Virus record (IMG/VR): IMGVR_UViG_2908567220_000009
From: a virus
Taxonomy: Duplodnaviria > Heunggongvirae > Uroviricota > Caudoviricetes
Direction: 5' to 3' (one strand)
Length of the DNA: 41,636 nucleotides
Positions 29,000 through 32,398 of the stretch are shown one piece after another. The notes under the pieces are model-generated. The model was not told the DNA's origin. It worked only from the letters and a program-made list of their open reading frames with translations, and did no database searches. The position numbers and the translations under genes are program-made. Within the stretch, counting starts at the first letter, position 1. Each line of letters opens with the position of its first letter.

Positions 29000-31900
29000 A
29001 TGGGTAAAGGCAGCAGTAAGGGGCATACCCCGCGCGAAGCGAAGGACAACCTGAAGTCCACGCAGCTGCTGAGTGTGATCGATGCCATCAGCGAAGGGCC
29101 GGTTGAAGGTCCGGTGGATGGATTAAAAAGCGTGCTGCTGAACAGTACGCCGGTGCTGGACAGTGAGGGGAATACCAATATATCCGGCGTCACGGTGGTG
29201 TTCCGGGCCGGTGAGCAGGAGCAGTCACCGCCGGAGGGATTTGAATCCTCCGGCTCCGAGACGGTGCTGGGTACGGAAGTGAAATATGACACGCCGATCA
29301 CCCGCACCATTACGTCTGCAAACATTGACCGACTGCGTTTTACCTTCGGCGTGCAGGCACTGGTGGAAACCACCTCAAAGGGGGACAGGAATCCGTCGGA
29401 AGTCCGCCTGCTGGTTCAGATACAGCGTAATGGTGGCTGGGTGACGGAAAAAGACATCACCATTAAGGGCAAAACCACCTCGCAGTATCTGGCCTCGGTG
29501 GTGGTGGGTAACCTGCCGCCGCGCCCGTTCAATATACGGATGCGCAGGATGACGCCGGACAGCACCACAGACCAGCTGCAGAACAAAACGCTCTGGTCGT
29601 CATACACCGAAATCATCGATGTGAAACAGTGCTACCCGAACACGGCACTGGTCGGCGTGCAGGTGGATTCGGAGCAGTTCGGCAGCCAGCAGGTGAGCCG
29701 TAATTATCATCTACGCGGGCGCATTCTGCAGGTGCCATCGAACTATAACCCGCAGACGCGGCAATACAGCGGTATCTGGGACGGAACGTTTAAGCCAGCA
29801 TACAGCAACAACATGGCCTGGTGTCTGTGGGATATGCTGACCCATCCGCGCTACGGCATGGGGAAACGTCTTGGTGCGGCGGATGTGGACAAATGGGCGC
29901 TGTATGTCATCGGCCAGCATTGCGATCAGTCGGTGCCGGACGGTTTTGGCGGCACGGAGCCGCGCATCACCTGTAATGCGTACCTGACCACACAGCGCAA
30001 GGCGTGGGATGTGCTCAGTGATTTCTGCTCGGCGATGCGCTGTATGCCGGTATGGAACGGGCAGACGCTGACGTTCGTGCAGGACCGACCGTCGGATAAG
30101 GTGTGGACCTATAACCGCAGTAATGTGGTGATGTCGGATGATGGCGCGCCGTTCCGCTACAGTTTCAGCGCCCTGAAGGACCGCCATAATGCCGTTGAGG
30201 TGAACTGGATTGACCCGGATAACGGCTGGGAGACGGCGACAGAGCTAGTGGAGGACACGCAGGCCATTGCCCGTTACGGTCGTGACGTCACGAAGATGGA
30301 TGCCTTTGGCTGTACCAGCCGGGGGCAGGCACACCGCGCCGGGCTGTGGCTGATTAAAACGGAACTGCTGGAGACGCAGACCGTTGACTTCAGCGTGGGT
30401 GCCGAAGGGCTTCGCCATGTACCGGGCGATGTCATTGAAATCTGCGATGATGACTATGCCGGTATCAGCATCGGTGGTCGCGTGCTGGCGGTAAACAGCC
30501 AGACCCGGACGCTGACGCTCGACCGTGAAATCACGCTGCCATCCTCCGGTACCACGCTGATAAGCCTGGTTGACGGAAGTGGCAATCCGATCAGCGTGGA
30601 GGTTCAGTCCGTCACCGACGGCGTGAAGGTGAAAGTGAGCCGTGTTCCTGACGGTGTTGCTGAATACAGCGTGTGGGGGCTGAAGCTGCCGACGCTGCGC
30701 CAGCGCCTGTTCCGCTGCGTGAGTATCCGTGAGAACGACGACGGCACGTATGCCATCACCGCCGTGCAGCATGTACCGGAAAAAGAGGCCATCGTGGATA
30801 ACGGGGCGTACTTTGACGGCGACCAGAGCGGCACGGTGAATGGTGTCACGCCGCCAGCGGTGCAGCACCTGACCGCCGAAGTCACCGCAGACAGCGGGGA
30901 ATATCAGGTGCTGGCGCGCTGGGACACGCCGAAGGTGGTGAAGGGCGTGAGCTTCCTGCTCCGTCTGACCGTAACAGCGGATGACGGCAGTGAGCGGCTG
31001 GTCAGCACGGCCCGGACGACGGAAACCGCATACCGCTTCAGGCAACTGGCGCTGGGGCGTTACACGCTGACGGTCCGGGCGGTAAATGCGTGGGGACAGC
31101 AGGGCGATCCGGCATCGGTATCGTTCCGGATTGCCGCCCCGGCAGCGCCGTCGCGGATTGAGCTGACGCCGGGCTATTTTCAGATAACTGCCACGCCGCA
31201 TCTTGCGGTTTATGATCCGACGGTACAGTTTGAGTTCTGGTTCTCGGAAAAGCGGATTACCGATATCAGGCAGGTTGAAACCACAGCCCGCTACCTTGGC
31301 ACGGGGCTGTACTGGATAGCCGCCAGTATCAATATCAAACCGGGCCATGATTATTACTTTTATATCCGCAGTGTGAACACCGTTGGCAAATCGGCATTCG
31401 TGGAGGCCGTCGGTCGGGCGAGCGATGATGCGGAAGGTTACCTGGATTTTTTCAAAGGCAAGATAACCGAATCCCATCTCGGTAAAGCGCTGCTGGAAAA
31501 AGTTGATCTGACGGAGGATAACGCCAGCAGACTGGATGAGTTTTCGAAAGAGTGGAAGGACGCTAACGATAAATGGAATGCCATGTGGGGCGTCAAAATT
31601 GAGCAGACCAAAGACGGCAAACATTATGTCGCGGGTATTGGCCTCAGCATGGAGGACACGGAGGAAGGCAAGCTGAGCCAGTTTCTGGTTGCCGCTAACC
31701 GTATCGCGTTTATTGACCCGGAAAACGGGAATGAAACGCCGATGTTTGTGGCGCAGGGCAACCAGATATTCATGAATGACGTGTTCCTGAAACGCCTGAC
31801 GGCTCCCACCATTACCAGCGGTGGAAATCCGCCGGCATTTTCCCTGACACCGGACGGAAAGCTGACCGCTAAAAATGCGGATATCAGCGGTAATGTGAAT

Positions 31901-32398
31901 GCAAATTCAGGGACGCTCAACAATGTCACGATTAATGAGAACTGTCAGATTAAGGGGAAACTGTCAGCCAATCAGATTGAAGGCGATATTGTCAAAACGG
32001 TCAGCAAGTCTTTCCCCCGCACGAACAGTTATGCCAGTGGCACCATCACGGTAAGAATCAGTGATGATCAGAAATTTGACCGGCAGGTCATGATACCGCC
32101 AGTGTTATTCCGCGGTGGTAAGCATGAGAATTTCAACAGTAATAACCAACAGTCATACTGGTATTCAACCTGCCGGTTAAGAGTGACCCGCAATGGTCAG
32201 GAGATTTTTAATCAGTCCACGACGGATGTTCAGGGCGTATTTTCCTCAGTTATAGATATGCCTGCCGGACAGGGGACGCTGACACTGACATTCACCGTAT
32301 CTTCATCAGGAGCGAATGACTGGACACCAACAACCAGTATCAGCGATCTGCTGGTTGTGGTGATGAAGAAATCCACAGCAGGTATCAGTATCAGCTGA
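29000..32398 (+). CDS. J: tail tip / host-specificity protein J
   Basis: 1132 aa, near-identical to lambda J over most of its length ([34 protein letters not shown]...), with a divergent C-terminal ~150 aa. Confidence 0.95.

Follow-up and report, generated by a model that had tools for sequence, protein, structure and literature searches.

The virus record IMGVR_UViG_2908567220_000009, the 41,636-nucleotide (nt) stretch of DNA analyzed here and called the window, is an Escherichia coli prophage that carries a lambda-type gene J for the tip attachment protein, or central tail fiber. The J product combines a lambda-like body with a C-terminal receptor-binding domain (RBD; amino acids (aa) 961-1132) of the A8/phi330 type, and this RBD very probably targets the porin OmpC and not LamB, the maltoporin bound by lambda. 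The assignment was made because the RBD is 97-98% identical to those of A8 gpJ and phage phi330, for both of which OmpC dependence was established experimentally. Functional and structural characterizations of this common cassette already exist; the feature itself is thus already known.

The J gene was found as a single intact open reading frame (ORF) with exactly the length of lambda J (lambda NC_001416, 15505-18903), and the RefSeq name for the gene is "gpJ: phage attachment tail tip protein J". According to the ORF list, it is preceded by L (26923), K (27627), and I (28268), which are all lambda-like, and followed by lom and stf, the latter two recognized by Pfam. All six Pfam domains of J (FNIII-A_GpJ, Phage-tail_3, Ig_J, Ig_J_second, Phage_Tail_Tip, and Ig_GpJ_C) were detected above their cut-offs and in the lambda order, with Ig_GpJ_C, the C-terminal receptor binding domain, covering aa 1008-1132. 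By BLASTP, window J was 89% identical to lambda J overall, colinear with it, and alignable to the C-terminus. Judged by domain order, colinearity, and gene position, the gene is of the lambda gpJ type, and its divergent C-terminus is still homologous to that of lambda and belongs to the same fold family.

The identity to lambda was distributed very unevenly along the protein. Within aa 1-960, 930/960 residues were identical (96.9%), whereas in aa 961-1132 only 83/177 alignment columns matched (46.9%, with 10 gap columns; Fisher test for the contrast, p = 1e-60). In 60-nt steps along the DNA, identity remained at ~95% up to 31879, dropped to 47/60 at 31880-31939, and varied between 22 and 40/60 from 31940 to the stop codon. 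The original prediction, that J follows lambda for ~950 residues and then diverges, is therefore borne out by the alignment. The interval that it gave, 31850-32398, corresponds to J aa 951-1132 and brackets the junction correctly, and the peptide that it quoted, [49 protein letters not shown], is aa 978-1026. High identity to the LamB-binding domain of lambda had been named as the finding that would speak against it; over aa 985-1132, loops L1-L4 included, the identity was 41.2%.

The RBD was compared with gpJ proteins of known receptor specificity. A PDB sequence search returned the chain "A8 gpJ 713" (9WCA and 9WCB), which differed from the window at 3/168 residues over positions 965-1132 (N965S, V1077A, and D1107N, window residue first) and was identical to lambda upstream of residue 964. 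When E. coli OmpC was used to search the PDB, entry 9WCB was found to hold the A8 gpJ chain plus three chains named "Outer membrane porin C". For A8, the C-terminus of a natural gpJ from E. coli was joined to lambda gpJ at residue 964 to bypass LamB (Brödel et al., Nature 2024, PMC11338833). Particles with A8 gpJ delivered DNA into ΔlamB cells in an OmpC-dependent manner, as determined with ΔlamB and ΔlamB ΔompC strains complemented with ompC variants; A8 was efficient via the OmpC of MG1655 and EDL933, and A8, 1A2, or both worked on 21/23 OmpC variants (PMC11338833). The A8 graft shows that the J segment flagged here suffices to redirect lambda from LamB to OmpC. The second characterized relative is the J protein of phi330, from which the window RBD differed at 5/172 residues (97% identity). 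This phage does not lyse the Keio ΔompC strain, and lysis is rescued by complementation (PMC12502783). The window domain is therefore nearly identical to two alleles with experimental OmpC dependence, and the earlier suggestion that it probably specifies a different outer-membrane receptor can be narrowed to a named one.

Of note, divergence from lambda, on which that suggestion had been based, would not have been enough to argue for a receptor change, because the RBD of phage 21 is equally far from that of lambda (50% identity) and yet uses LamB. Conversely, the RBD of phage 434 is only 49% identical to that of the window, yet 434 also uses OmpC. The level of divergence is therefore no predictor of the receptor; only near-identity to a characterized allele is. 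The deep mutational scan on LamB by Andrews & Fields (2020) did not have natural C-terminal swaps as its subject.

Three DNA comparisons placed the left boundary of the divergent segment at one and the same position. Relative to phage 434B, the window differed only at 31940-32395, with the J body, lom, and the 5' end of stf being 90-100% identical. Relative to lambda, the divergent block passed the J stop codon and continued through lom to ~32990. Relative to phi330, a Stx2a phage, the J body was ~65% identical, and identity jumped to 97-100% at ~31856-31915 and was kept through the RBD, lom, and the 5' end of stf. The junction coincides with the aa 964 point of lambda J that was chosen by Brödel et al. 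for grafting natural gpJ C-termini (PMC11338833). Together, the comparisons identify the RBD as an exchanged cassette and not the result of local drift. Fast evolution in situ was ruled out, since the DNA identity to lambda falls to 50-60% within ~60 nt, yet phages whose J body is of another type carry this block at 97-100% identity. GC content was also considered as a marker of the swap and was discarded: it decreases from ~0.60-0.65 to ~0.50 as early as ~31200, where the sequence is still lambda-identical, and remains at 0.47-0.52 across the RBD.

The block that diverges from lambda also takes in nearly all of lom. Window Lom was 43% identical to lambda Lom, and lom DNA was ~95-100% identical to that of 434B and phi330. 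The RBD and lom are therefore two distinct mosaic modules that lie next to each other, with lambda lom as the outlier. Residues 960-1132 of J have been designated the "specificity region", with indel hotspots near 1012, 1049, 1077, and 1107, and the phylogeny of this region is decoupled from the rest of J through frequent recombination (Maddamsetti et al. 2018, PMC6646904). The window illustrates this known rule, namely that the segment from ~964 to the end is a cassette freely exchanged among lambdoid phages.

Compared with lambda, the RBD contains three loop-sized indels (-4 residues at 1008-1011, +5 at 1043-1052, and -1 at ~1104). The corresponding loops were located in phi330 by adding 90 to the phi330 J numbering. 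This offset results from the annotation of phi330 (PV189401), where J at 1634-5049 is given as 1042 aa and a separate 351-nt ORF just upstream overlaps the J start; the gene looks split by a frameshift or an assembly error. Loop T1008-Y1011 falls on the residue-1012 indel hotspot of lambda (PMC6646904) and equals phi330 T918-Y921, for which no OmpC contact was predicted (PMC12502783). Two further segments match hairpins that contact OmpC in the AlphaFold3 model of the same study: E1043-S1052 equals phi330 E953-S962, predicted to point into the OmpC barrel, and A1105-P1110 equals phi330 A1015-P1020, predicted to touch the OmpC rim (PMC12502783). The former is identical in the window and the characterized alleles, and the latter carries N1107D. 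The D1107 codon (GAC, 32318-32320) aligns with D1107 of lambda, and residue 1107 of lambda J is one of the two required for its OmpF innovation (PMC6646904).

The distribution of the allele was surveyed in phages and in bacterial genomes. In the phage collection, RBDs with 96-99% protein identity occurred in many Stx1a and Stx2a phages and in 2H10, Chlobot, Turner, PhiR30_1, YYZ-2008, CP-1639, and phi330. Lower tiers were formed by phage 21 and its relatives (83%), another Stx group (78%), one more group (64%), and lambda, HK630, and similar phages (47-49%). The window thus groups with the 96-99% cluster that holds A8, phi330, 2H10, Chlobot, and the Stx1a phages, and not with phage 21. The closest full-length J was that of PhiR30_1, an ECOR-derived PhiR phage (97.1%). 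A literature search for the names Chlobot, 2H10, and PhiR returned nothing relevant. Among 5,426 complete E. coli genomes, nt 31940-32398 matched 587 records at at least 99% identity and 924 at 95-99%, giving 1,511 records at at least 95%. An identity of 100% was reached in 7 genomes (A37, A20, A36, Q5, MB53, GF130, and NCTC9064); the D1107 variant is unchanged in these genomes and is therefore real, with no sequencing error involved.

Several points weigh against the assignment to OmpC. The window carries two substitutions relative to the characterized alleles, A1077V and N1107D (codons verified), and N1107D sits in the predicted OmpC-rim hairpin, at the homolog of the lambda receptor-switch hotspot 1107. 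The RBD of phage 21 is 83% identical to that of the window, and both of its predicted contact hairpins equal those of phi330, yet its native receptor is LamB, with OmpC use added by one J mutation (PMC11336670; bioRxiv 10.1101/2023.04.13.536812). In this allele family, a few residues can therefore decide which receptor is used. A publication for PDB 9WCA/9WCB was looked for and none was found; the chain is linked to the A8 of the Nature paper by its name and the matching chimera architecture. Finally, an IS66 element lies in the short early region of the prophage, and the prophage may therefore be defective; this would leave the identity of the domain unchanged, but bears on whether the RBD is used.

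The example of phage 21 raises the question of whether the window RBD still uses LamB, its divergence from lambda being neutral for receptor identity. Such a reading could also draw on V1077, which is common to the window and phage 21. Nevertheless, the two RBDs differ at 29/172 residues, the window is much closer to the OmpC-dependent A8 and phi330, and A8 particles function in ΔlamB cells; retention of LamB is therefore considered very doubtful. As regards the two substitutions, it is improbable that N1107D, in combination with A1077V, is non-neutral in the sense that the acidic residue in the rim hairpin retunes specificity to only some of the OmpC alleles or to an additional porin. Slightly less credit still is given to the related proposal that both changes together adapt the allele to one particular OmpC variant or to a different porin (OmpF or LamB), with a receptor or host range unlike that of A8 and phi330. 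The predicted rim contact of D1107, its alignment with a residue needed by lambda for OmpF, the change of receptor use by single J mutations in phage 21, and the recurrence of the D1107 allele in complete genomes are all compatible with retuning, whereas the wide OmpC diversity tolerated by A8, the unchanged hairpin E1043-S1052, and the conservative nature of the N-to-D exchange argue against it. If it were true, the N1107D variant would be a natural case of a receptor shift by a single residue, as observed in phage 21 and in lambda evolution experiments.

The possible defect of the prophage leads to the most remote of the alternatives, for which we see hardly any probability: J could be a relic whose RBD has no present role in adsorption and merely serves as a donor cassette for incoming lambdoid phages. 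The IS66 transposase set at ~9912-12500, the mere ~10 kb between the integrase/exonuclease genes and the terminase gene, and the location at the Qin/ydfJ site would fit a relic. However, full-length, intact ORFs were found for J, lom, stf, L, K, I, and H, and other genomes have conserved exactly this RBD allele; moreover, this alternative concerns prophage activity and not domain function. OmpC targeting thus remains the preferred reading, and we infer that the window allele, despite A1077V and N1107D, would behave like the characterized A8 and phi330 alleles.

A mechanism can be proposed from the lambda system. The last ~170 residues of J form the Ig-like RBD that tips the trimeric central tail fiber, and the lambda-type J body probably gained the A8/phi330-class cassette by homologous recombination at the conserved stretch near residue 964. 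In lambda, four loops at the bottom of the trimeric Ig-like RBD enter the extracellular lumen of the LamB trimer, and opening of the RBD signals up the fiber and opens the tail tip (Ge & Wang 2024, PMC11101478). Window J has kept the transmitting apparatus in its lambda form, and only the loop-bearing domain was replaced. By homology to lambda, the same docking-and-opening sequence is thus most likely to take place on trimeric OmpC, where the bottom hairpins of the RBD would dock instead of on LamB. Virions, if made by the prophage, would adsorb irreversibly and eject their DNA via OmpC.

Table 1. Features of the window that are relevant to gene J and its surroundings.
Feature	Position (nt)	Strand	Details
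Integrase	2-1297	-	
IS66-family genes	9912-10562 (HTH_Tnp_1 ORF); 10929-12500 (DDE_Tnp_IS66 ORF)		Between integrase/exonuclease genes and terminase; short early region
Gene J (tip attachment protein / central tail fiber)	29000-32398	+	Single intact ORF, 1132 aa
Lambda-type J body, aa 1-960	29000-31879	+	96.9% aa and ~95% DNA identity to lambda
Recombination junction, J aa ~953-981	31856-31940	+	Conserved [21 protein letters not shown] stretch; identity to lambda and 434B falls, to phi330 rises
RBD ("specificity region"), J aa 961-1132, A8/phi330 type, predicted OmpC binder	31880-32398	+	46.9% identity to lambda; 3 differences from A8 gpJ; 97% to phi330; 83% to phage 21; Pfam Ig_GpJ_C
Loop T1008-Y1011 (TNSY)	32021-32032	+	4 aa shorter than in lambda; from alignments with lambda and phi330
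Hairpin E1043-S1052 ([10 protein letters not shown])	32126-32155	+	5 aa longer than in lambda; identical in window, A8, phi330, and phage 21
Codon V1077 (GTT)	32228-32230	+	A in A8, phi330, 2H10, Chlobot, and Stx1a phage; V in phage 21
Hairpin A1105-P1110 (ANDWTP; phi330 ANNWTP)	32312-32329	+	D1107 in window; N in A8, phi330, phage 21, and most relatives
Terminator-like hairpin and T-run between J and lom	32416-32445	+	Terminator annotated at the matching relative position in phage 21
lom (Ail/Lom outer-membrane protein), 434/phi330 type	32465-33064	+	Pfam Ail_Lom, E = 1e-125
stf (side tail fiber), 1202 aa	33123-36731	+	Pfam phage_tail_N aa 3-136; Peptidase_S74 aa 1059-1110
Antisense ORFs overlapping the region	31624-31929; 32230-32553	-	Regarded as mechanical ORFs inside or abutting the well-supported J gene

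The side tail fiber was lambda-like only at its N-terminus: aa 3-286 of Stf shared 85% identity with lambda orf-401, whereas the other ~900 aa were unrelated to the lambda protein. This agrees with the earlier view that the stf tip is also swapped and that both adsorption determinants are non-lambda. At its distal end, Stf carries a Peptidase_S74 intramolecular chaperone domain (aa 1059-1110) and a coiled coil, and no separate tfa gene follows. In Ur-lambda, Stf binds OmpC and J binds LamB (PMC11338833); the OmpC binder there is thus Stf, whereas in the window the predicted OmpC binder is J.

Other parts of the prophage also depart from lambda. The 739-aa ORF at 18123-20342 fuses a ClpP-type protease (aa 95-255) to a phage capsid domain (aa 441-736), and the head module is therefore not of the lambda type, although the tail tip (L, K, I, and J) is. 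The tape measure protein (23489-26584) has 1031 aa compared to 853 aa in lambda, which implies a longer tail; its C-terminal domain is of the lambda type (Tape_meas_lam_C), and a ManYZ-type entry route is possible. The early or lysis region of the prophage, where the IS66-family genes lie, may be disrupted or truncated. Downstream of stf, a Pin-type resolvase/invertase (37003-37593, minus strand) is followed by matches to ydfK, ydfJ, and ydfI, the last of which belongs to the mannitol dehydrogenase family (39478-40824). These chromosomal genes place the prophage next to the Qin/ydfJ locus. Many genomes carry IS1 at this Qin/ydfJ end (36700-41636); the window is without it. Within the J body, F924 (nt 31769-31771) is conserved. 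In lambda, J residue 924 triggers the Gifsy-1 abortive-infection nuclease HepS, and an F924S mutant escapes (PMC13043305). By analogy, window J with F924 would be predicted to be HepS-sensitive.

In practical terms, the receptor of the prophage central fiber can be annotated as OmpC, not LamB, by transfer from near-identical characterized alleles. Roughly one in four complete E. coli genomes contains this cassette class, which is also the one used in engineered OmpC-targeting lambda particles. Because of this abundance and the use in engineering, resident prophages could supply or receive the cassette by recombination. Beyond annotation, the significance of the finding is small.

Among the known systems, the lambda-A8 gpJ chimera (PMC11338833; 9WCA/9WCB) closely resembles window J, as both consist of a lambda-type body to ~964 followed by this RBD allele. 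They differ in that the chimera is an engineered graft on lambda J (body 100%), whereas the window is a natural mosaic with a body 97% identical to lambda, and in that A8 has N1107 and A1077 where the window has D1107 and V1077. Phage phi330 (vB_EcoS_phi330, a Stx2a siphophage, PV189401) has nearly the same RBD as the window, and its lom and stf 5' end are 95-100% identical in DNA. However, its J body upstream of ~955 is of the Pankowvirus type, its first loop reads TSTY instead of TNSY, and it too has N1107 and A1077. Phage 21 J (OL657228) resembles the window in its lambda-like body, its allele family, and the consensus form of both predicted contact hairpins; it is set apart by its 29 RBD substitutions, its native use of LamB (PMC11336670), and the lack of lom downstream. 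Lambda J (P03749; PDB 8IYK, 8XCK, and related entries; PMC11101478) belongs to the same family, is equally long, and has the same order of domains and a trimeric Ig-like RBD with loops at its bottom, together with the near-identical aa 1-960, but its RBD is 41-47% identical to that of the window, differs by indels in three loops, and binds LamB. Phage 434 J (OL657227, isolate 434B) is accompanied by a lom and stf 5' end that, like its J body, are nearly identical to those of the window. Phage 434 uses OmpC (PMC11101478, PMC12502783), but with an RBD of other loop lengths, which represents an independent solution for OmpC binding.

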